Origin: Escherichia coli O157 typing phage 13
Strand: one strand, 5' to 3'
Sequence record: KP869111
DNA length: 64,000 nucleotides
Part shown: positions 932 to 29,029 of the stretch, piece by piece
Numbering within the stretch: position 1 is the first letter of the stretch
How the letters are laid out: each line of letters starts with the position of its first letter
The notes under the pieces: model-generated
What the model was told of the DNA's origin: nothing
The model's input: the letters and a program-made list of their open reading frames with translations, nothing else
The model's database searches: none
Made by a program: the position numbers and the translations under genes

Positions 932-2032
932 TTACGCTGTGAAGATTTTATCCCACATCGCAACAACTGCATCTCGGTTATACTTCTTCCATACTGCTTC
1001 AGCACGTTTAACTCGAGCTTCGTATGTGTCAGTGAATTCTAATACAGCTTTTGTGTAAAGCGCAACTACTTCTTTCTTAGGAGTAGAGGAATCAATTTCT
1101 ACACGCACAGTATCTGGGTCGTATTCGAATGTCGCATGAGGATAATCCTTAAAAACTAACTGGATTACAGGGACACCTTTAGAGATGGCTTCAATAGAAC
1201 TATTCTCTACCGTACCTGTGTCAGGACACGTATTAATAAGTGCTTTAGCTGTTTTAAGACGTTCCATAATTTCACTGTGTGGAGCATCAATAATAACAGG
1301 ATATTTAGCTGGTGGTGCCCATTTACTAGGACAGTATCCTGCACCATTTTCGCCTAGTGCTTTAATCGCTTCAAGAGCAACATCAGTACGACGCATTTTA
1401 GTGTCATAACGTTGTGCACTAATAATCAGATCAGTCGCCGGAAGAACTTCAGGTTTCTCATTCAAACAAATAACCGGATAATCTTCGGCTTCAAACAACG
1501 GATTTGCTCGCCAATAATCATAATCAATTTTGTCAGTCAGACCTGAAGTCATATAACAATATTTACGTTCAAATTCACGGAAGGCTTTAGTAGGAGCATA
1601 ACTCTTACCACCATTCTTATGAATTTGAATAGTCTGGTCCCAAATTTGAACAATGCCACGAGATACCGGTTCAAACGGTGTTGCCATAAAATTCTTATGA
1701 ACTTTAGAGAGACCTGCGTCTTTAATTGCCTGAACGGTTAGTTTAGTCGGTTCCATAGTAACAACGAAATCGTATTCATGGATGCCGGCTAGTTCAACAA
1801 TCTTACGAGCCATAGTATAACTCATACCTAGACTGAATTTAGTCAGATGACCAACAGGATGATGATTAACCTTCCAATCACCAAATGTGTCATTATCAAA
1901 ACCAATATAATCAATATCGGCACCGATAGAAACTAAATATTTCAACACATTTAAATGTACTGCTTCAAGACCACCTTGTACACGGTCAGGATTAAATGGG
2001 ACTGCACGAGATGGGATAAACATAACTTTCAT
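932..2032 (-). CDS. GT-B fold glycosyltransferase, candidate DNA 5-hmC glycosyl (arabinosyl-type) transferase
   Basis: 366 aa; C-terminal E-x4-E-A-I-S-K-G-V-P-V-I motif typical of GT4/GT-B donor-binding domain; ATG with AAGG SD; sits between gene 39 and rIIA where T4 has gene 60/mobA. Confidence 0.55.
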   Translation of the reverse strand: MKVMFIPSRAVPFNPDRVQGGLEAVHLNVLKYLVSIGADIDYIGFDNDTFGDWKVNHHPVGHLTKFSLGMSYTMARKIVELAGIHEYDFVVTMEPTKLTVQAIKDAGLSKVHKNFMATPFEPVSRGIVQIWDQTIQIHKNGGKSYAPTKAFREFERKYCYMTSGLTDKIDYDYWRANPLFEAEDYPVICLNEKPEVLPATDLIISAQRYDTKMRRTDVALEAIKALGENGAGYCPSKWAPPAKYPVIIDAPHSEIMERLKTAKALINTCPDTGTVENSSIEAISKGVPVIQLVFKDYPHATFEYDPDTVRVEIDSSTPKKEVVALYTKAVLEFTDTYEARVKRAEAVWKKYNRDAVVAMWDKIFTA

Positions 2033-20874: not shown

Positions 20875-21216
20875 TTAAAAGAATTTAAATTTTTTCTTGG
20901 TTCGTTCATTAAAAGCTTGTTGTACTTGCATTGTAACACATTTTTCAACATGTGGTGCAAGTTCTGCTTTTCTGTCCTGGTCAAGAACTGCAAAGTCCAT
21001 TACGATTTTACCATCAACCCAGTCTAGTTTTGTAATATAGACTATATGATGAGAACCATCTTCAAGTGTAATCAGAATCTCTTGAATGACATTTTCCATT
21101 GCTGAACGGATAATTTTAAGAGATTCATTAAACACTCGTTCTTTGCGAATGTCTTCCCCTTCCGAAGAAGGGGATTCATCAACGATTTCTAGATTTAAAT
21201 CATCGAGATTATTCAT
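20875..21216 (-). CDS. hypothetical protein (gene 40 position by synteny)
   Basis: ORF between uvsX and 41; start taken at second ATG to limit overlap with uvsX. Confidence 0.45.
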   Translation of the reverse strand: MNNLDDLNLEIVDESPSSEGEDIRKERVFNESLKIIRSAMENVIQEILITLEDGSHHIVYITKLDWVDGKIVMDFAVLDQDRKAELAPHVEKCVTMQVQQAFNERTKKKFKFF

Positions 21217-22381
21217 CGAAATCTTCCATTTCGTCAAGGTCGTTTTCTATATCTGCTGCAGACGGAGCATCAGAAGTTTTAACCGGAACTTTAGTTGTTG
21301 CTTTGCAATTAATAAGGTCGTTAACAGCGTCATCAACTTCTTTAATAGAAGAGATAGCACCTAGTTTATATTTAGTTTCAATTGCATCTCGGAAAGGTTT
21401 GTGTTTAAACAAAGGTCCCCAGAATTCTACACAATCGGTAGCTTTAGCACGCCATGATTTCTCTTCACGAATCATTTCGCCTGTTTCTTCGTCAAGGAAT
21501 TCGCGAGCATACCACCCGGCTTTAGGCTTAACAACAAATCCAATTTCAGTTGCCATTTCTAACAAGCCACTGAATGGGTCAATACCGCCATCAAAATTAA
21601 CCGTGATCGGGAAAGTAGATTTCTCTTTAACTGTACGAGATTTTTCCGCTTTCAACGTAAAGTCATAACCGGTCAATTCTGTACCTTCTTTAACCTGACG
21701 TTTAGAGATAAAAAATACCGTGTTGGCAGAATAAAGAATACCTGTACCACCGCCCATAATCTCTTTAGGATACAATCCGCCGATTTCCATTGCTGTATGG
21801 TTGATTGCAACACATGGAATATCTTTAATAGTCAGATAAGGAGTCACAATGCGGAACAGAGATTTAAGTGCCTTAGCACGAGACATATCACCTACAACTT
21901 TCTCGTTCAATGCATCTTCGGTTTCTTTCTTAGATGCAGTATTACCAATCGAGTCAATAAAGATAATAACTTTATCACCGCGTTCAATAGCGTCAAGCTG
22001 ATTAGTCATATCAACTTTAAGTTGTTCGACAGATTGAATCGGAGTATGAACTACACGGTCTAAATCAACACCCATTGAACGAAAATAAGATTCCGAAGCA
22101 CCGAATTCTGAGTCATAAAACAAACAGATTGCATCTTTATATTTCTTCATATACGCTGCAACCATAGTTAGTCCAAACAACGTTTTAAAGTGTTTAGAAG
22201 GAGCAGCAAAAATAGTTAAGCCTGATTGCAACCCGGCATTCAGTGCACCACCTAATGCAATATTCAACATCGGAATACGAGTAGGGACTTCATCGCGATT
22301 ATTAAACAGCTTAGACTTAGTCAAGTCTGCAGTCATTTTAGAAGTAGAAGCTTTAATCAGACGAGATTTTAAATCAGACAT
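21209..22381 (-). CDS. uvsX: UvsX recombinase (RecA-like)
   Basis: 390 aa; MSDLKSRLIKASTSK... closely matches T4 UvsX. Confidence 0.9.
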   Translation of the reverse strand: MSDLKSRLIKASTSKMTADLTKSKLFNNRDEVPTRIPMLNIALGGALNAGLQSGLTIFAAPSKHFKTLFGLTMVAAYMKKYKDAICLFYDSEFGASESYFRSMGVDLDRVVHTPIQSVEQLKVDMTNQLDAIERGDKVIIFIDSIGNTASKKETEDALNEKVVGDMSRAKALKSLFRIVTPYLTIKDIPCVAINHTAMEIGGLYPKEIMGGGTGILYSANTVFFISKRQVKEGTELTGYDFTLKAEKSRTVKEKSTFPITVNFDGGIDPFSGLLEMATEIGFVVKPKAGWYAREFLDEETGEMIREEKSWRAKATDCVEFWGPLFKHKPFRDAIETKYKLGAISSIKEVDDAVNDLINCKATTKVPVKTSDAPSAADIENDLDEMEDFDE

Positions 22382-22434
22382 TGTATTTTTCCATAGGCAT
22401 CATTATATTTTACTCATGTTTAAAAGATAAGATG

Positions 22435-22461
22435 ATTATATACTAAGGGTTATACAGCATT
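22435..22461 (-). promoter_or_regulatory. candidate T4 middle promoter (MotA-box-like AATGCTGTA + 12 bp + TATAAT) upstream of uvsX
   Basis: one mismatch to TGCTT core; spacing fits the middle promoter rule. Confidence 0.35.
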
Positions 22462-22479
22462 TAAAACTTTAAATGACTC

Positions 22480-23028
22480 TTAACGAGCCCATTTGATGAT
22501 TTCTGTAATCAAATCATTACGTTCGCTTGCATTAAATCCTATAACTTTGTTAGCACCATCATGATTAAGTAATTGATACGTTTGGATTTTGTTATGAATT
22601 GCAAACTCTTCAAAATGTGAAATGACTGTATTAAAACCGAATGAAGACAAAGTGATAAGGTCGTCTTCAAAACTTTCAGTCATTTCGTTACGTGTTAAAA
22701 TAATTGTGAACACATCATGGTTTTGGCAAAGACGAACATAATCCTGTTCATAAACGTCAAGAACCGAGTCCGCATCTTGTCGAATACGTCCATAAACCCA
22801 GTTACTAATATATCCACGGTCTAACAGATAAATCTTAGTAGGGTCTAAATAATTCAACATCGTTTCGAAACAGCCAACTTCATTTCGAGACTTAACATCG
22901 AAACGTCCATCAACTGTTCGTTTAGGGAAATCAATCTTTACATATCTTTCACTAATTTCCATTATGTCATTAATGAAAGTTGTTTTACCAGCATTATCCG
23001 GGCCATCTACTAAAATAATTTTAGCCAT
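22480..23028 (-). CDS. P-loop kinase (NMP-kinase / thymidylate-kinase-like fold), substrate unknown
   Basis: 182 aa; Walker A LVDGPDNAGKTTF; GAGGAA SD; no T4 counterpart recognised at this position. Confidence 0.5.
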   Translation of the reverse strand: MAKIILVDGPDNAGKTTFINDIMEISERYVKIDFPKRTVDGRFDVKSRNEVGCFETMLNYLDPTKIYLLDRGYISNWVYGRIRQDADSVLDVYEQDYVRLCQNHDVFTIILTRNEMTESFEDDLITLSSFGFNTVISHFEEFAIHNKIQTYQLLNHDGANKVIGFNASERNDLITEIIKWAR

Positions 23029-23029
23029 T

Positions 23030-23929
23030 TTATTCCTCGATTACGACATCTTCATATTTAGGTATATTATACGGTGAAGAAATTAAAGCATTAAAGTAGA
23101 TGAACTCACCAAGACCTGGATGAAATACTTCTTCAGGATTTTCGAAATATTGAATCTTCGGACGTCCTTTAAGAATTTGATAGTACTCAGTTTTAGTTGG
23201 TTTAAAAATTCGAATCAACGCTTCTTCAGGATACTTATTTCTGTCGAAGCTATTATTTGGATCGGTTATATAAAGCGGTTGACCTAATTGAATTGCGCAT
23301 TCAACAACTTGTTCAAAACGATAGCATGGGTCACTAATTCGAAATGGATGAAAAATACCATCTAGATGAATAGGAGCCAAATCACCTACAAGACGCTGCA
23401 TGATGGAAGGACGTATAACTTTCTGCGTTACGATAATCTTATTACCATCTGCACCTGCGTTAACCAGCACTTCTTTTTGACGTTCATTCAACACAGTAGT
23501 TTGAAGTGAACGATTAACCGACAACATATCAGTTTTTAAGAATTCGTCAATATAAAAACGTGGTTTATTAGGGTCTGCAGTGATATTGAAATTGAATTCC
23601 ACATCAAAAGCGCCGTCATATCCAGTGATATCTGTGATTAAAAAATCACAATCATAATAAGCAATTAATGAATCAACAACAAATTCATTTTCAGACCAGA
23701 AATATTTACGAGTGTTATACGCGTTATCTTTATACCATAATGGAACAAACTTAAATTCTGGAAAAAGACGTTCGCATTCTTTAATATCAGATGCATTACG
23801 TGGATATGTAATCACATCACCCGGATTAGCACGGTGCAAATGAAGTTGGAAGTTGCCATCCTTAAGGATAGCATACTGTCCAGTTTCATAAGACCGCATA
23901 CTCAAGATTGGTACGCGGAAAATAGCCAT
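23030..23929 (-). CDS. hypothetical protein, possible second glycosyltransferase (beta-gt position)
   Basis: 299 aa; C-terminal EQVVECAIQLGQPLYI loosely resembles GT-B EA..G.P(V/L) motif; TAATG overlap with upstream gene. Confidence 0.45.
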   Translation of the reverse strand: MAIFRVPILSMRSYETGQYAILKDGNFQLHLHRANPGDVITYPRNASDIKECERLFPEFKFVPLWYKDNAYNTRKYFWSENEFVVDSLIAYYDCDFLITDITGYDGAFDVEFNFNITADPNKPRFYIDEFLKTDMLSVNRSLQTTVLNERQKEVLVNAGADGNKIIVTQKVIRPSIMQRLVGDLAPIHLDGIFHPFRISDPCYRFEQVVECAIQLGQPLYITDPNNSFDRNKYPEEALIRIFKPTKTEYYQILKGRPKIQYFENPEEVFHPGLGEFIYFNALISSPYNIPKYEDVVIEE

Positions 23930-24645
23930 TAGTCAAGGAATCCTTTAACATAATCAAAATCACGTTCAAACACATGGGCACTTACCATGGTATGAGTATA
24001 ATCACCAACTTCTACCCCACATTCGTTAGCGATATAATGAAGTAATTTTCCTTGGAGATAAAAATCCAACTGCATAACAACAGCACAGTTCTGAGAACGC
24101 ATATGACAGTGGGTATAAAGCTTACCATCACGAATATAATAAGTCACTGAGTCAGTACATGGATATTCAAGCGTTTCGTCCGAATCAAGCAAAGCCTGAT
24201 CAGAACTTTCTAGAATTTGGAACACAACTCTTCGAGAGTTAGGCTTCTCTTTAAGTTCTTTTAGAAGAGCTGGTAATTGGGCCGCAATGCGAGGACCATA
24301 GAAAGTGTTGAAGTTCGCCGGCAAAACATCTGATTTTGGTTTAGAAATAAATTTAGCGACATTAGGATATGCCTTAAACGCTTCTTCTGCGTTGGTACCA
24401 CCAGAAATCATAAACTTCCAGAAGTCTTCGGCATATTCATAAGAGATGCGGTTAATACGTGGGTCGGTCATTTTGAATGATGATGGAGTGTCAACAACTA
24501 CTGTCATAGACCCAATTTCATTACAACGTCCAATACGAGAATCAGTTACGAATTCCGGGTTTTCTAAAATTTCACGATTGACTGCTTTAAATGCGGTTTG
24601 AAAATCTGCGGCTTTGATATATTTCATTGTGTTATGTTTTCCCAT
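23929..24645 (-). CDS. pyrimidine hydroxymethylase of thymidylate synthase superfamily (dCMP hydroxymethylase, gene 42-like but divergent)
   Basis: 238 aa; NSRRVVFQI, YPCTDSVTYYIRDGKL (catalytic Cys), MRSQNC, SAHVFERDF align to T4 gp42 / TS motifs; GAGGT SD. Confidence 0.6.
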   Translation of the reverse strand: MGKHNTMKYIKAADFQTAFKAVNREILENPEFVTDSRIGRCNEIGSMTVVVDTPSSFKMTDPRINRISYEYAEDFWKFMISGGTNAEEAFKAYPNVAKFISKPKSDVLPANFNTFYGPRIAAQLPALLKELKEKPNSRRVVFQILESSDQALLDSDETLEYPCTDSVTYYIRDGKLYTHCHMRSQNCAVVMQLDFYLQGKLLHYIANECGVEVGDYTHTMVSAHVFERDFDYVKGFLD

Positions 24646-24687: not shown

Positions 24688-24927
24688 TTATTTGAATTTC
24701 TTGACAATGTTGATATAACGTAAAGCTTCAGCATCGATACTTCCAAGAACACTATGAAGAAATGCATCAGCGTAGTATTCCAATTGAACAGGTTCTTTAA
24801 TCACTTTAGCCGCTTTAGTTTCAAACAGGCCCATCAGGGCCTTTTTAAGAATTTGTTCGTTGCTGTTAATTTTCATAGTCAAAATCTCTTCATTAAGTTG
24901 GTGGTTAAAAGTTTTTCTAGAAATCAT
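24688..24927 (-). CDS. small acidic protein (weak carrier-protein-like LGSID motif)
   Basis: 79-aa ORF; ATGA overlap with upstream gene. Confidence 0.4.
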   Translation of the reverse strand: MISRKTFNHQLNEEILTMKINSNEQILKKALMGLFETKAAKVIKEPVQLEYYADAFLHSVLGSIDAEALRYINIVKKFK

Positions 24928-26084
24928 TCCGGGTACCTCAAAGCGTCATCAGAGTTAGTTATATCAATAATAGATATAGAGTTTTCTGCTAACCCGTTTT
25001 TAGATAATTGACGTTTATAATATCTTTCACAATATGTACACGTCGTCCCGCAGATTTCATTAGCACAATCGAAATCTGGATGTCTGAACCACCTTTTTTC
25101 TAAAAAGCCATCTAACAAAGAGGTTTCAATATTTACTGTATGTGAAAACTCAGTTTCGTTTTCAAGAGTGAAAATAGTCTCTAAAGGCTTCCACAGTTCT
25201 AACAAATTACCTTCAAACTTTTCAGAAGCGTATGCTTCAAGAACTTTCAAAATGTAGTCTGTGCTACCTGTACGTCCTGAAACTTTGAATTGAGTGATAC
25301 CAATATCATTATAAAGTTTCAAATCTTGAGGACGAACAAAACGAGTTCTCAACCAGTTAAATGGGTCTGTATCACGAGCTTTAATACAGTGCTGCATAGG
25401 ATATCCGTTTAAGGATTTAGCATCATCAGCTGTAACATCAGTACTATGGAAAATATAGCAAGAGTCACGATAGCTACAATGTGTTGTATACCCTTTACCA
25501 GCATTAGAACAGAACTCATTTACAAGAACTTCAAATATTATATTGTTCTTATTGCAAAACTCTGCTGCACGCTTCAGGAAAGAAACTGAACGGTTCTTAT
25601 GAATTCCACAGCAGACCTTTTTGATATTATACTGGTCATGCAAGTATTTGATTTGAGTTACAGCATCGACATGTAGAATTGTTGAAACTTCAATCTCAAT
25701 GTCTTTATTGACTTCACGAACAATTTCCATAACAACAGGGTTAGCGATAGTAATACGCCATACGCCTATTGACCAAAGATACTGAACATAATCCTGAATA
25801 GCTTTCTTCTTCCACCCAACTAGTTCTCTTTTTGAACCAGGATTTATCGTGTTGAGTGTATAGTTAAAGCAAATACCTAATTCGTTACAACGTTTAACGT
25901 AATCTTCTAACATCTTTTTGTCAACGTCAGGAAGCCTAAAATCAGGTCTGGCTGCTACAAAAGCCATTTCTCTTGTAGAGCCGTATACTTCGTTTATCAA
26001 GCTATTAGGATAAGTTTTATTGAGCTCTACGATTTTATCAAGAAGAGCTAAATCAAAATTCGTTCCAATTTTAAAAGTATTCAT
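24924..26084 (-). CDS. Cys-rich protein of uncertain family (possible Fe-S enzyme; peptidase-U32-like or radical-SAM-like features)
   Basis: Track M1 is GTG; ATG at MNTFKIG; Cys clusters EFCSNAGKGYTTHCSYRDSC and C-terminal CANEICGTTCTYC (CxxxCxYC spacing). Confidence 0.45.
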   Translation of the reverse strand: MNTFKIGTNFDLALLDKIVELNKTYPNSLINEVYGSTREMAFVAARPDFRLPDVDKKMLEDYVKRCNELGICFNYTLNTINPGSKRELVGWKKKAIQDYVQYLWSIGVWRITIANPVVMEIVREVNKDIEIEVSTILHVDAVTQIKYLHDQYNIKKVCCGIHKNRSVSFLKRAAEFCNKNNIIFEVLVNEFCSNAGKGYTTHCSYRDSCYIFHSTDVTADDAKSLNGYPMQHCIKARDTDPFNWLRTRFVRPQDLKLYNDIGITQFKVSGRTGSTDYILKVLEAYASEKFEGNLLELWKPLETIFTLENETEFSHTVNIETSLLDGFLEKRWFRHPDFDCANEICGTTCTYCERYYKRQLSKNGLAENSISIIDITNSDDALRYPE

Positions 26085-26140
26085 TTTTTTGCATCTCACG
26101 TTAATTGATGCGATGGTTTTTGCAGGTCTTACTTAAATTA

Positions 26141-26527
26141 TTATAGATTCGGTTTATATGATTTAAATGTTTCGAATTCGCCTTTATTCATAAGAGCTTT
26201 GAATTCGTCAGGACGCATAGCTTTGTCGTCGATAATCCAATCATATACTGGTTTATGTGTTAGCAAATTATGGTACTTCAAACCAATGTTTTCCAAGTTC
26301 TGAATCAGACTTGGGAGAATGTCAATTGCTATACGACCAGGACCTACTGACTTCATACCGCGAGCAGTGTAAAGCGTTATGGTATGCCCTGCATCATACA
26401 GGGCATTAATAGCAGTCACCATTTCGACGTCTGGTTTGAAGTTCACGTAATCACGATTGTTATTCCACTCTGTTATACAATCATCGACATCAAAACAAAG
26501 ATTAAGCATGTTTTCTACACGGTGCAT
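26141..26527 (-). CDS. HAD-superfamily-like small phosphatase
   Basis: FDVDDC (motif I-like DxD), conserved K, IIDD (motif IV-like); start at ATG overlapping upstream stop. Confidence 0.5.
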   Translation of the reverse strand: MHRVENMLNLCFDVDDCITEWNNNRDYVNFKPDVEMVTAINALYDAGHTITLYTARGMKSVGPGRIAIDILPSLIQNLENIGLKYHNLLTHKPVYDWIIDDKAMRPDEFKALMNKGEFETFKSYKPNL

Positions 26528-28212
26528 TAGATTCGTTCCCATTGATGAGTGATATCGCCACCGATTGGACGATAAGAAACACCAGTTTCTTTATCAGTTA
26601 GTACCCATTTACCAGGATTTTTTGTAATCAGAGTAGCCGTTACAGGTTCTGCTACGTCATAACTAATAGAGCCGTCCTGAAGTACACGGCCCATGTTACG
26701 TAATTGCTTAGTCAGAAGTTCCATACCTTTATAATATGCGGCTACCGCTTTAAGTGGATTATTCTTGAAATAACCACCTAATGCAATCCAGATAATTGCT
26801 ACAGCCAAATGATGATACTCGTTAAACGAACTCATCTTTCCATATTTGTAAACTAATGGATTGATGTTAATAGTCACATTACAAGTTGTTTCGTCAATAG
26901 TAAACTGTCCCCAGGTCGGATTAGCGTTGAATTCATCATAACCTGAAACAGCATAAAGCACTTTAGCTTCATCATACAATTTTGGCCCGTAAATCTTGGT
27001 TTCGCCAAAATATCCACGAGGGTCGATAAACTTGACTTCGCCGTTATCAGTAATCATAGTATTACTGAAGTTCGGGTCACCGTGAATAACAGAGTACTGT
27101 CCCTGAGAACGGGTATGATAACGAATAAGATGTTCTAAAGCTTGCTTCAGCATTGGCTTCAGACGTCCAATCTTAGTGTAGTTCACGTGTGTGATTTTAC
27201 CAAATGAATCAATCAATGGCTGAATGCTTTCACAACGATCAATAACTTTCGTATAGAACTCTTTAGTGAAATCACGGCGAACAGTTTCAGGACTTACAAA
27301 ATAAGTGTCTGTGCTGAATTTCAGTGCATCTAAAATTGCATCAACAATTTGTGGACGAGCAAGACTTGATTTGGATTTAATATATTCAAATGCTGGCTTA
27401 CCTTTAATACGTTCCATTTCAAAATTATTTTCATTTACCGAAACTAACTGAGGAACTGAATCTGATTTCACTTTCAAATACCATGAAATCTCATCTTTTT
27501 GAAGAGCTCGACCTTGTTCGGTTAACGCGAATTTAGTTACAGTTTCTTCGCCAATTTCAACTGCATTAAAACTACGATTAAGTTCACGAACTTCATGAGC
27601 TTTTTCAAGTTTAGGCATATCACCTAAATCAATTAGATTCATAAGCTCTGATTTATTGAATGCACTGCCGTAAAGGAATTCTACGAAATCACGTCCTTTG
27701 CAGTATTCATGAATTTCCTCATCAGTAGAACCCATGTAGAATTCCCAGTCTTTGAACTGATAAATTCCTACAACATTACCGCCTGTTGAACCTACGTTAG
27801 TGATATTTTCACCATCGAAATTATATCGACATTCATCACCCTTAACATAGATTGCGTTAACATTCCAAGACCATGAACCAAAATCAGGAATAATATCACA
27901 CCAGTTAACAATTACGTTATGGCCATCTAAATCTTTGTATAATTTAGCAAGAGCATAAGCAGAACCATACGCTTCATCAACTGTACGAATAGTCACATTG
28001 AACCCTTCTTGCTCGCAATAAGCTCGAACAGTTTCAGCAAATTTTGAATGAACTACTACAATAATTTCATCTGCGCCAAGGTCAGAATAAATTGTATACA
28101 AATTGCTCAGAATAGTGTCTTGTTTATAGTTAACAAGAACTTTTGGAATATGATGCGTTATTGGATACAAACGAGTTGCCAGTCCAGCACCAAGAATAAC
28201 AGCTTTTTTCAT
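26527..28212 (-). CDS. bifunctional sugar-1-phosphate nucleotidyltransferase (N-term) / small-molecule kinase of APH-choline-kinase fold (C-term)
   Basis: 561 aa; N-terminal ILGAGLATRLYPIT (RmlA/GlmU-like); C-terminal HGDPNFSNTMI...IDP (Brenner kinase motif); GAGGA SD. Confidence 0.65.
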   Translation of the reverse strand: MKKAVILGAGLATRLYPITHHIPKVLVNYKQDTILSNLYTIYSDLGADEIIVVVHSKFAETVRAYCEQEGFNVTIRTVDEAYGSAYALAKLYKDLDGHNVIVNWCDIIPDFGSWSWNVNAIYVKGDECRYNFDGENITNVGSTGGNVVGIYQFKDWEFYMGSTDEEIHEYCKGRDFVEFLYGSAFNKSELMNLIDLGDMPKLEKAHEVRELNRSFNAVEIGEETVTKFALTEQGRALQKDEISWYLKVKSDSVPQLVSVNENNFEMERIKGKPAFEYIKSKSSLARPQIVDAILDALKFSTDTYFVSPETVRRDFTKEFYTKVIDRCESIQPLIDSFGKITHVNYTKIGRLKPMLKQALEHLIRYHTRSQGQYSVIHGDPNFSNTMITDNGEVKFIDPRGYFGETKIYGPKLYDEAKVLYAVSGYDEFNANPTWGQFTIDETTCNVTININPLVYKYGKMSSFNEYHHLAVAIIWIALGGYFKNNPLKAVAAYYKGMELLTKQLRNMGRVLQDGSISYDVAEPVTATLITKNPGKWVLTDKETGVSYRPIGGDITHQWERI

Positions 28213-28253
28213 GTTGTGGTCCTCATTGGTAAGTAGGTGTATTGTACACTATT

Positions 28254-28397
28254 CTAGTTAAAGCATTCATACTTTGCTTGTAGTCCAATCATAATCCATC
28301 CAATTACAAGTGTTGGAATCATTACTGGAGCCGTTAAGCTCCAGTAGATAGTCATGACAAGCATCAATAGTAAAAGTCCTATTGTTATTGCTTTCAT
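28254..28397 (-). CDS. small hydrophobic membrane protein (47 aa)
   Basis: Own translation MKAITIGLLLLMLVMTIYW...; ATG overlaps SIS-gene stop (ATGA); not in ORF track. Confidence 0.4.
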   Translation of the reverse strand: MKAITIGLLLLMLVMTIYWSLTAPVMIPTLVIGWIMIGLQAKYECFN

Positions 28398-29029
28398 TGT
28401 TCGCCTCGTAACATGGCACCTAGTGCACCGCCTGGATGGAACTTAAGAAAGTCATTAGAGGTAAATCCACGTTCAGACGAAAGGTTGATAGCAAACGTAT
28501 CGATAAGCGCTAACAACAATGTAGTGGACATAGTCGGAGCCAGAGAATTCTCATCAACCTCTACCGCGATGCCTGTACAGAAAGAGTAATCAAAAAGGGC
28601 TTCATTTTCTTGCGGAATGTCTGGGTTACAATGCAACAGAATCTGTTTGACATTTGGACGAATCATTTTAAGATGCTTAGCCACGCCTATCATTTCTTCA
28701 GTCTTACCAGAACGACTAATATGAATCAACACATCATTAGGCGCAATGAATCCTGCATCACCGTGAGAATAATGCCCAGTGTTCAAGTACATACTCGGGA
28801 TACCGAGTGAAGCAAATGTCTCAGAAGCTTTAGTTGCAATATTAGCATTCTTACCAACACCTGTAATAATTACTCGGCTTTCATAATTACTAAGTCCAGG
28901 GCGTCGAAGAGTTTCTAGAATAGCATTATAACGAGCAGGGTTTTGACTAATTACTTTGGCCATAGCGGCCAAAGAAGAAGCTTGTTTTATGATTGCGTCA
29001 ATAGCGATAGTAATAGGAGTAGTTTTCAT
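28394..29029 (-). CDS. SIS-domain sugar-phosphate isomerase (arabinose-5-phosphate isomerase KpsF/GutQ-like, no CBS domains)
   Basis: 211 aa; ITGVGKNANIATK...HGDAGFIAPNDVLIHISRSGKTEE...APTMSTT...HPGGALG match the API/SIS signature. Confidence 0.7.
   Translation of the reverse strand: MKTTPITIAIDAIIKQASSLAAMAKVISQNPARYNAILETLRRPGLSNYESRVIITGVGKNANIATKASETFASLGIPSMYLNTGHYSHGDAGFIAPNDVLIHISRSGKTEEMIGVAKHLKMIRPNVKQILLHCNPDIPQENEALFDYSFCTGIAVEVDENSLAPTMSTTLLLALIDTFAINLSSERGFTSNDFLKFHPGGALGAMLRGEQ

Follow-up and report, generated by a model that had tools for sequence, protein, structure and literature searches.

Mahler et al. 2025 (Cell Host Microbe) and He et al. 2026 (Nat Chem Biol) reportedly describe a 5-hydroxycytosine (5hoC) chemistry in phages together with its gene cluster. 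The same chemistry and cluster are described by Lee et al. (NAR 2026, PMC13326640), and in phage RB69 the modification is beta-D-Araf-(1-3)-alpha-D-Araf (Araf, arabinofuranose) ether-linked to 5hoC (PMC13326640). Enzymes of the RB69 gp48 class have been shown experimentally to convert deoxycytidine monophosphate (dCMP) to 5-hydroxy-dCMP with flavin and O2 (Lee et al., NAR 2026, PMC13326640), and an isomerase, a bifunctional enzyme and a phosphatase are stated by Lee et al., citing He et al. (PMC13326640), to make uridine diphosphate (UDP)-arabinofuranose from ribulose-5-phosphate. Here we describe the corresponding locus of Escherichia coli O157 typing phage 13 (sequence record KP869111), within a stretch of 64,000 nucleotides referred to throughout as the window, and in particular a pair of adjacent genes at positions 22480-23929 coding for proteins of 299 and 182 amino acids (aa). 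The locus is already described and its pathway was published in 2025-2026; the 2018 report of RB69 arabinosylation mentions neither open reading frame (ORF) of the pair.

We put a probability of about 0.7 on the overall picture that the 299-aa protein is the first arabinosyltransferase, and the 182-aa protein the modified-dCMP kinase, of the 5hoC pathway; we are much less sure of the exact substrate of the kinase. The pair would form the last two members of a translationally coupled three-gene core, in the order 5-hydroxy-dCMP synthase, GT-B transferase and kinase, serving a pathway that replaces cytosine with O-arabinosylated 5hoC. The 299-aa enzyme would transfer the first arabinofuranose from UDP-Araf to the 5-hydroxyl of 5hoC, most likely in DNA, and a 366-aa enzyme coded elsewhere in the window (932-2032) would then add the second arabinose. 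The 182-aa enzyme would be the module's own monophosphate kinase, converting 5-hydroxy-dCMP to the diphosphate and, in T4-like phages, duplicating or supplementing the gp1-type deoxynucleoside monophosphate (dNMP) kinase. With a kinase of its own, the three-gene cassette would be self-sufficient when moving between phage lineages.

Identity and organization of the gene pair

The pair is present as the same genes in RB69 (gp45 and gp46:47), DLP3 (gp78 and gp79) and RL38J1 (gp214 and gp215), with no sequence difference that sets them apart. The RB69 record splits the transferase gene through a sequencing error, and the window holds it as one intact ORF, whose product is 99.3% identical to RB69 ORF046c+047c. 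Lee et al. call RB69 gp45 a 'nucleotide kinase' and gp46:47 'arabinosyltransferase 1', with the same fold assignments as ours, reached independently and from structural evidence of the same kind (PMC13326640). Proteins of the window cluster are 97-99% identical to those of the afh cluster of phage HY126, and the gene order is the same; 179 of 182 residues match in the kinase and 297 of 299 in the transferase. Structures have been solved for the HY126 synthase (9iqc, 9ir2, 9iqu) and 366-aa transferase (9iqz, 9ir0), and none was found in the PDB for the 299-aa or the 182-aa protein. The window is from a Mosigvirus, and at the nucleotide level the region of the pair agrees at 100% identity with E. 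coli O157 typing phages 3 and 6 and at ~99% with many genomes of that genus.

Both ORFs are real conserved genes rather than chance ORFs, since both match PHROG families (1.6e-45 to phrog_761, 'thymidylate kinase', for the 182-aa protein, and 3.4e-156 for the 299-aa protein) and tblastn recovers homologues in 343 and 348 phage records respectively. The stop codon of the synthase gene and the start of the transferase gene overlap as TAATG, and a single base lies between the transferase stop and the kinase ATG. A terminator scan finds no terminator-like site within 22480-23929, the number of sites in the promoter/terminator scan is not above that in shuffled sequence, and the composition profile of the stretch shows nothing unusual.

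A preliminary description of this DNA, made from the sequence, placed two ORFs between uvsX and a thymidylate-synthase homologue, at the position where T4-like phages with 5-hydroxymethylcytosine (hmC) carry the beta-glucosyltransferase gene beta-gt, and raised the possibility of a modification chemistry different from that of T4. The ORF list confirms the two genes, the order gp42, glucosyltransferases, uvsX in Serratia phage PS2 agrees with the placement, and the locus is indeed that of the 5hoC pathway. The neighboring thymidylate-synthase homologue was then taken for a hydroxymethylase, as it also is under the label 'dCMP hydroxymethylase' in some GenBank records. This assignment has to be given up: the protein (PF00303 match, 2.3e-15) keeps C146 and carries the changes D169N and N177D, and it matches the solved HY126 5-hydroxy-dCMP synthase (PDB 9iqc/9ir2/9iqu) at 7.9e-161.

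The 299-aa protein has a predicted GT-B fold

Sequence searches of the PDB, Pfam and NCBIfam gave nothing usable for the 299-aa protein, and fold comparison was used instead. Its AlphaFold2 model (predicted local distance difference test score, 94.7) has two Rossmann-like beta/alpha/beta domains facing an inter-domain cleft; the modelled fold is GT-B, and a glycosyltransferase activity is predicted from it. The closest folds are those of sucrose-phosphate synthase, BshA and PimA, and the GT4 retaining glycosyltransferases, which include these three and MshA, are the best structural matches, with a conserved Arg/Lys and a Glu in the putative donor half. Unlike GT4 enzymes the protein has no Glycos_transf_1 or Glyco_trans_4 match, the first Glu of the EX7E motif is not conserved in its family, and its C-terminal domain is truncated; judged by a profile match and by the two EX7E glutamates, of which only E275 is conserved in the family, the protein does not qualify as a member of GT4. 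A retaining mechanism would agree with an alpha-linked first arabinose, provided that the alpha anomer serves as donor.

An alignment of 35 homologues defines the invariant blocks of the family as SMRS (residues 10-13), KDGN (23-26), TDxTGY (99-104), FxPFRxSD (193-200), TDPN (222-225), K246 and HPG..E (270-275). Three of them, FxPFRxSD, K246 and HPG..E, lie in the putative donor-binding half; here R197, K246 and the HPG of 270-272 are invariant in the alignment, and position 275 is E or D throughout. Pocket and surface arguments, here and for the kinase below, are drawn from alignments only. The preliminary description had also considered a divergent DNA glycosyltransferase, citing a weak GT-B-like 'EA..G.P' motif near the C-terminus. 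A GT-B fold is borne out by the model and the motif is not: it corresponds to EQVVECAIQLGQPLYI at residues 206-221, which is the start of the C-terminal domain, and its columns vary among the 35 homologues, so that the resemblance is a chance one. The UniRef name of the transferase, 'RNA polymerase binding protein', is ruled out by the GT-B fold.

With the alpha- and beta-glucosyltransferases of T4 the 299-aa enzyme would share the GT-B fold, a UDP-sugar donor, an acceptor hydroxyl appended at C5 of cytosine and the genome position of beta-gt, but it has no sequence or closest-fold relationship to T4 beta-glucosyltransferase.

The 182-aa protein is a candidate nucleotide kinase with a probably altered base pocket

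Fold comparison assigns the 182-aa protein to the thymidylate-kinase fold, in agreement with its earlier characterization as thymidylate-kinase-like. It shares with thymidylate kinases (PF02223, TIGR00041) the motifs GxDxxGK[ST], FPxR and DR(Y/H) and one Arg in the lid region, and the family profile aligns its GxDxxGKT P-loop, FPxR and DR with vaccinia thymidylate kinase, the whole-sequence score being below significance. Even at 28-30% identity, clear members of the family retain the P-loop, FPxR and DR residues as well as R113, and because they are kept in such distant relatives the enzyme looks catalytically competent. The DLP3 protein is in the list of family matches (H113).

Unlike thymidylate kinases, the 182-aa protein scores far under the family thresholds (16.6 bits against a cut-off of 83.25 for TIGR00041; no match for PF02223), and searches of the PDB, Pfam and NCBIfam return only sub-threshold P-loop matches. 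T4 gp1 (1dek) is not its closest fold. In an alignment with the human, vaccinia and E. coli thymidylate kinases, for which approximate reference sequences were used (the vaccinia one agrees with the profile alignment where they overlap), there is no counterpart of the helix that stacks on thymine and reads its O4, and which in the human enzyme carries F72 and R76. The lid in the same alignment is short, with an invariant F-x-D-D. The absence of the base-packing helix suggests a base pocket that is remodelled and more open.

The kinase and transferase genes travel with the synthase

Gene neighborhoods were compared in 58 viral-contig loci taken from the transferase alignment, together with reference loci, by scoring their ORFs against the window proteins and family profiles (loci are numbered with the prefix L). 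Among complete loci, all those with a transferase of 33% identity or more have the synthase-transferase-kinase triad, and each synthase in these loci has Asn169; wherever a kinase-bearing locus has a thymidylate-synthase homologue, positions 146/169/177 read C/N/D. The triads are of two classes, one in T4-like phages with arabinose-supply genes and the other in environmental contigs without them. The environmental module consists of a flavodoxin-like flavin mononucleotide (FMN) reductase (PF02525), the synthase (Asn169), the transferase and the kinase (L002 6715-9555; L035-L048, e.g. L037 5102-7926), and no arabinose-supply genes are found within 8 kb of it. The synthase probably receives its reduced flavin from the FMN reductase; a host UDP-sugar could be the source of the sugar, and these modules may make new O-glycosyl-5-hydroxycytosine variants.

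Gene order is less constant in Klebsiella/JS10-type phages, where the kinase gene has moved to a site between the HAD phosphatase gene and either the gene of a peptidase-U32-family protein or that of the synthase (L004 3629-4168, kv_tblp8; L016-L020; L025). The kinase is 37-41% identical there, versus 67-69% for the transferase, and is still retained, a pattern that suggests relocation or replacement with retention of function. A further group, resembling the Pootjesviridae described by Lee et al., has a synthase with Asn169 and a related transferase, and in at least one of its loci (L062) a 211-aa protein matches the full-length thymidylate-kinase profile at 4.8e-5.

Phage PS2 is an hmC phage with a true hydroxymethylase (Asp169), two glucosyltransferases and a distant relative of the transferase, and its corresponding locus has no kinase. 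The relative, FF83_gp042 (L006 5001-5927, 308 aa), is 24% identical over 58% of the query by tblastn, with a profile E value of 2e-24; it sits between the dCMP hydroxymethylase and the beta-alpha and beta glucosyltransferases and may be an unrecognised third DNA glycosyltransferase. Numbers of records with kinase versus transferase are nearly equal in each genus with the exception of Serratia (14 vs 9), and PS2 (Muldoonvirus) is one Serratia record with a transferase relative and without the kinase. Since the triad is retained both with and without arabinose genes and the kinase is absent from PS2, the kinase appears to go with the 5hoC chemistry and the first transferase, not with a particular sugar, and is unlikely to be part of general thymidylate metabolism.

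A possible fusion of transferase and kinase, a 551-aa transferase-like ORF in L054, was considered and rejected, as it has no kinase-profile or Pfam match.

The 299-aa enzyme as the probable first of two arabinosyltransferases

The window codes for a second transferase of 366 aa, of the type reportedly named Aat by Mahler et al. Its RB69 homologue, ORF003c, was the arabinosyltransferase candidate of 2018, and its PDB matches are the solved structures entered as 'phage HY126 glycosyltransferase'. The two families differ in their distribution. The 299-aa family, with its 348 records, extends over phages of Escherichia, Acinetobacter, Klebsiella, Shigella, Serratia, Enterobacter, Proteus, Yersinia, Shewanella and others, whereas the 366-aa family has only 211 records, with one copy in phages of Escherichia, Shigella and a few related or unclassified records and two copies in those of Acinetobacter; it was not found among the records of Serratia, Klebsiella, Yersinia, Proteus or Shewanella phages. 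The copy number of 0, 1 or 2 tracks the one, two or three arabinoses reported, which are one in LC53 and Thanatos, two in RB69 and Bas46, and three in DLP3. Bas46 from which the 366-aa type has been deleted is viable.

From the presence of the 299-aa protein in all of these phages, and from a copy number of the 366-aa type that matches the later arabinoses, we infer that the 299-aa protein is the universal, base-proximal transferase and acts first. The synteny argument of Lee et al. agrees (PMC13326640).

Alternative explanations

Several observations weigh against the picture of a first arabinosyltransferase and a modified-dCMP kinase. No single purified DLP3 transferase arabinosylated 5hoC-DNA, and Lee et al. 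cannot tell whether the acceptor of the first transfer is a nucleotide or DNA (PMC13326640). The RB69 gp1-type kinase converts 5-hydroxy-dCMP to the diphosphate (PMC13326640), so that a second kinase for this step looks redundant in T4-like phages. Brandt et al. incubated purified Thanatos TH1_063, a homologue of the 299-aa protein, with UTP and xylose-1-phosphate and detected UDP-xylose by liquid chromatography with tandem mass spectrometry (LC-MS/MS). The 299-aa protein has no Pfam match at E<=0.1 and no NCBIfam match at E<=0.01; the first EX7E glutamate is not kept, position 267 being E, K or T in homologues; and the protein is acidic (isoelectric point 5.1), unlike an expected DNA-binding enzyme, which is weak evidence. 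A literature search, which did not take in He et al. 2026 and Mahler et al. 2025, found no direct activity test of either protein, and a transposon-mutagenesis preprint on LC53 and Bas46 has no essentiality data for the gene pair.

The alternative that best withstands the evidence, and which we nevertheless regard as unlikely, is that arabinosylation comes before replication: the 299-aa enzyme would arabinosylate free 5-hydroxy-dCMP, the kinase would phosphorylate arabinosyl-5-hydroxy-dCMP, and the glycosylated triphosphate would be polymerised. A dedicated kinase would be needed if, as is posited, gp1-type and host kinases cannot accept so bulky a substrate, and a kinase otherwise redundant with the gp1 type would have a task of its own. 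The inactivity of single DLP3 transferases on 5hoC-DNA in vitro fits this scheme, as do the adjacency of the transferase and kinase genes, often with overlapping stop and start, across very distant phages, the missing base-packing helix and more open pocket of the kinase, and the small anionic acceptors used by the nearest transferase folds (sucrose-phosphate synthase, BshA, PimA). The acidity of the transferase points the same way, though charge was computed as a clue to DNA versus nucleotide as the acceptor and dropped as too weak. Against it, all phage DNA glycosylations that we know of are post-replicative, following the T-even paradigm, and a relative of the transferase occurs among the DNA glucosyltransferases of PS2 without the kinase. 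Moreover, 5-hydroxy-dCTP is readily incorporated into DNA in vivo, and the later arabinoses are demonstrably added on DNA (PMC13326640). Arabinosylation of the nucleotide, were it true, would explain both the inactivity of the transferases on 5hoC-DNA and the universal second dNMP kinase beside the transferase. In that case a glycosylated deoxynucleoside triphosphate would be the direct substrate of the phage polymerase, and this would be, to our knowledge, the first natural sugar-bearing nucleotide polymerised into a genome.

It is very unlikely that the 182-aa protein is an ordinary thymidylate kinase supplying dTDP without any role in modification. The match to phrog_761 and the fold would agree with this, as would the annotation in many records, but the TIGR00041 and PF02223 scores far below threshold and the loss of the thymine-stacking, O4-binding helix do not. 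T4-like phages make dTDP with gp1, and the kinase gene occurs in the phage groups that have the 299-aa transferase, in near-equal counts per genus, and is absent at the PS2 locus. An ordinary dNMP kinase with no part in modification had been allowed for in the preliminary description; the kinase found here is strictly linked to the modification module.

We consider it highly improbable that the 299-aa protein is a UDP-pentose pyrophosphorylase, as reported for TH1_063. The UDP-xylose product obtained by Brandt et al. favors this activity, and the Thanatos-2 orthologue of TH1_063 is 47.5% identical to the 299-aa protein. The fold, however, is GT-B and not that of a nucleotidyltransferase, the cluster already has an NTP-transferase domain in an enzyme whose HY126 orthologue is reported as UDP-arabinose pyrophosphorylase, and the environmental modules keep the 299-aa family with no other sugar-activation genes within 8 kb. 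A co-purified host uridylyltransferase would explain the TH1_063 assay.

Lastly, kinases of 5-hydroxymethyluracil (5-hmU) in DNA (PF18748, HMUDK_HMUD1) are likewise small phage P-loop kinases coded beside a thymidylate-synthase homologue in a DNA-hypermodification cluster, and an analogy with kinases of 5-hydroxymethylpyrimidines in DNA had been drawn from the sequence at first. The analogy does not hold, as the 182-aa protein belongs to a different profile family, has no aGPT-Pplase-type transferase partner and carries mononucleotide-kinase motifs. Phosphorylation of the 5-hydroxyl of 5hoC in DNA in the manner of these enzymes, to activate or mask the base, is scarcely credible: hhalign gives 81% probability to M6 gp54, a proven 5-hmU DNA kinase, over the P-loop half only, whereas PF18748 rejects the protein (no match at E<=0.1; 7.7e-18 for M6 gp54 as positive control), conservation extends to the P-loop Asp, which in thymidylate kinases contacts the 3'-OH of the sugar, and to the phosphate-binding FPxR and DR motifs, the seven neighboring cluster proteins that were scanned against Pfam include no amino-acid:DNA transferase partner, and glycosyl transfer from a UDP-sugar requires no activated acceptor.

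Neighboring genes

The coordinates of the gene pair and of the other features of the pathway are listed in Table 1. The genes for UDP-arabinose supply, namely those for the isomerase, the bifunctional enzyme and the HAD phosphatase, are found at 26141-29029, further upstream in the operon of the gene pair. The bifunctional enzyme has an N-terminal NTP_transferase domain and an APH-like C-terminal domain and is identical to its HY126 counterpart, AfhE, at 543 of 562 residues; AfhE is reported, as cited in PMC13326640, to be a sugar kinase/UDP-arabinose pyrophosphorylase, and AfhF, again as cited there, to convert arabinose-1,5-bisphosphate to arabinose-1-phosphate. The HY126 counterpart of the SIS-domain protein is annotated as D-arabinose-5-phosphate isomerase. 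The HAD phosphatase and bifunctional enzyme genes overlap directly in the window; in a close relative, Escherichia phage NRG-P0074, they are separated by a homing endonuclease gene (L003 13183-13944).

Table 1. Genes of the 5hoC locus and related features in the window, with positions counted from the first nucleotide of the window.
Feature	Coordinates	Strand	Assignment and homologues	Evidence
366-aa ORF	932-2032	-	Second arabinosyltransferase (candidate); homologue of RB69 ORF003c (Aat)	PDB 9iqz/9ir0 match, 7.8e-250
uvsX	21209-22381	-	Downstream flank of the gene pair	
182-aa ORF, kinase	22480-23028	-	Predicted P-loop nucleotide kinase of thymidylate-kinase fold; homologue of RB69 gp45, DLP3 gp78, RL38J1 gp214	
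299-aa ORF, transferase	23030-23929	-	Predicted minimal GT-B glycosyltransferase; homologue of RB69 gp46:47, DLP3 gp79, Thanatos TH1_063	
5-hydroxy-dCMP synthase	23929-24645	-	Thymidylate-synthase fold, flavin and O2; homologue of RB69 gp48 and the HY126 enzyme	
79-aa ORF	24688-24927	-	Conserved protein within the operon	PHROG match, phrog_8601
391-aa ORF	24924-26099	-	Peptidase-U32-family protein; homologue of RB69 gp50	PF01136, 7.5e-11; phrog_5757
HAD-type phosphatase	26141-26542	-	Homologue of RB69 gp51 and HY126 AfhF	phrog_1238
Bifunctional enzyme	26527-28212	-	Sugar kinase and UDP-arabinose pyrophosphorylase; homologue of RB69 gp52:53 and HY126 AfhE	Pfam domains
Isomerase	28394-29029	-	Arabinose-5-phosphate isomerase, SIS domain; homologue of RB69 gp55	ORF; homologues in related loci

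Among the members of the U32 family are O2-independent C5 hydroxylases that act on RNA pyrimidines and ubiquinone (RlhA, TrhP, UbiU/V; references 65-66 of PMC13326640). The 391-aa protein has a weak UbiU match and no sequence match in the PDB; since the ThyA-like synthase needs O2 and the U32 hydroxylases do not, it could provide an anaerobic route to 5hoC. Its gene is found in Mosigvirus, Klebsiella, Yersinia, Pectobacterium, Serratia, Proteus and Shewanella phage loci and is lacking in those of Acinetobacter and Pseudomonas phages and in the environmental modules of the flavodoxin type. JS10-type coliphage loci, however, lack it as well. Lee et al. name the homologue a 'sugar or heterocycle reductase' (PMC13326640), and in the collection of papers searched, none mentioned U32 by name together with phage arabinosylation.

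Three viral contigs (L055 7466-10051, L056 4301-6865 and L060 7439-9973) have, in this order, a kinase-like ORF, a transferase relative, a U32 gene and a ~900-aa ORF of DNA-polymerase size, and a thymidylate-synthase homologue is lacking within 8 kb. Should these phages really have no synthase, their hydroxyl may come from the U32 protein.

Between the kinase stop and the uvsX start are 98 bases (22382-22479, - strand) that contain AAATGCTGTA followed 12 bases on by TATAAT, an arrangement resembling a MotA-dependent middle promoter of T4. The presence of this middle-promoter-like sequence means that uvsX may have its own promoter, apart from the modification operon.

Annotation and significance

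Public records label the members of the core variously. The transferase is 'RNA polymerase binding protein' or hypothetical, the kinase 'thymidylate kinase' and the synthase 'dCMP hydroxymethylase' (L003, L005, L007, L066 and clusters); the HY126 GenBank record gives the counterparts of both the 299-aa and the 182-aa protein as hypothetical. The bifunctional UDP-arabinose enzyme is a 'dCMP deaminase' in NRG-P0074, the HAD phosphatase appears as 'phosphoheptose isomerase', and M6 gp54 is labelled 'terminase small subunit'.

To the published pathway the present comparison adds four points: the number of arabinoses is matched by the copy number of the second transferase; the kinase is almost always kept next to the first transferase, even in modules that have no arabinose genes; the 5-hmU DNA kinase family is explicitly excluded; and the thymine-reading helix is lost. 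Arabinosylated 5hoC shields many T4-like phages, with hosts that include E. coli, Klebsiella, Serratia, Acinetobacter and others, from restriction enzymes, some CRISPR systems and DNA glycosylases (PMC13326640, PMC13216743), and this makes it relevant to phage therapy and phage engineering. Resolving how sugar and base are joined, and what the adjacent kinase does, would complete the pathway and show whether glycosylation may take place ahead of replication. As a marker, the three-gene core can be used to predict O-glycosylated 5hoC in new phage genomes and viromes.

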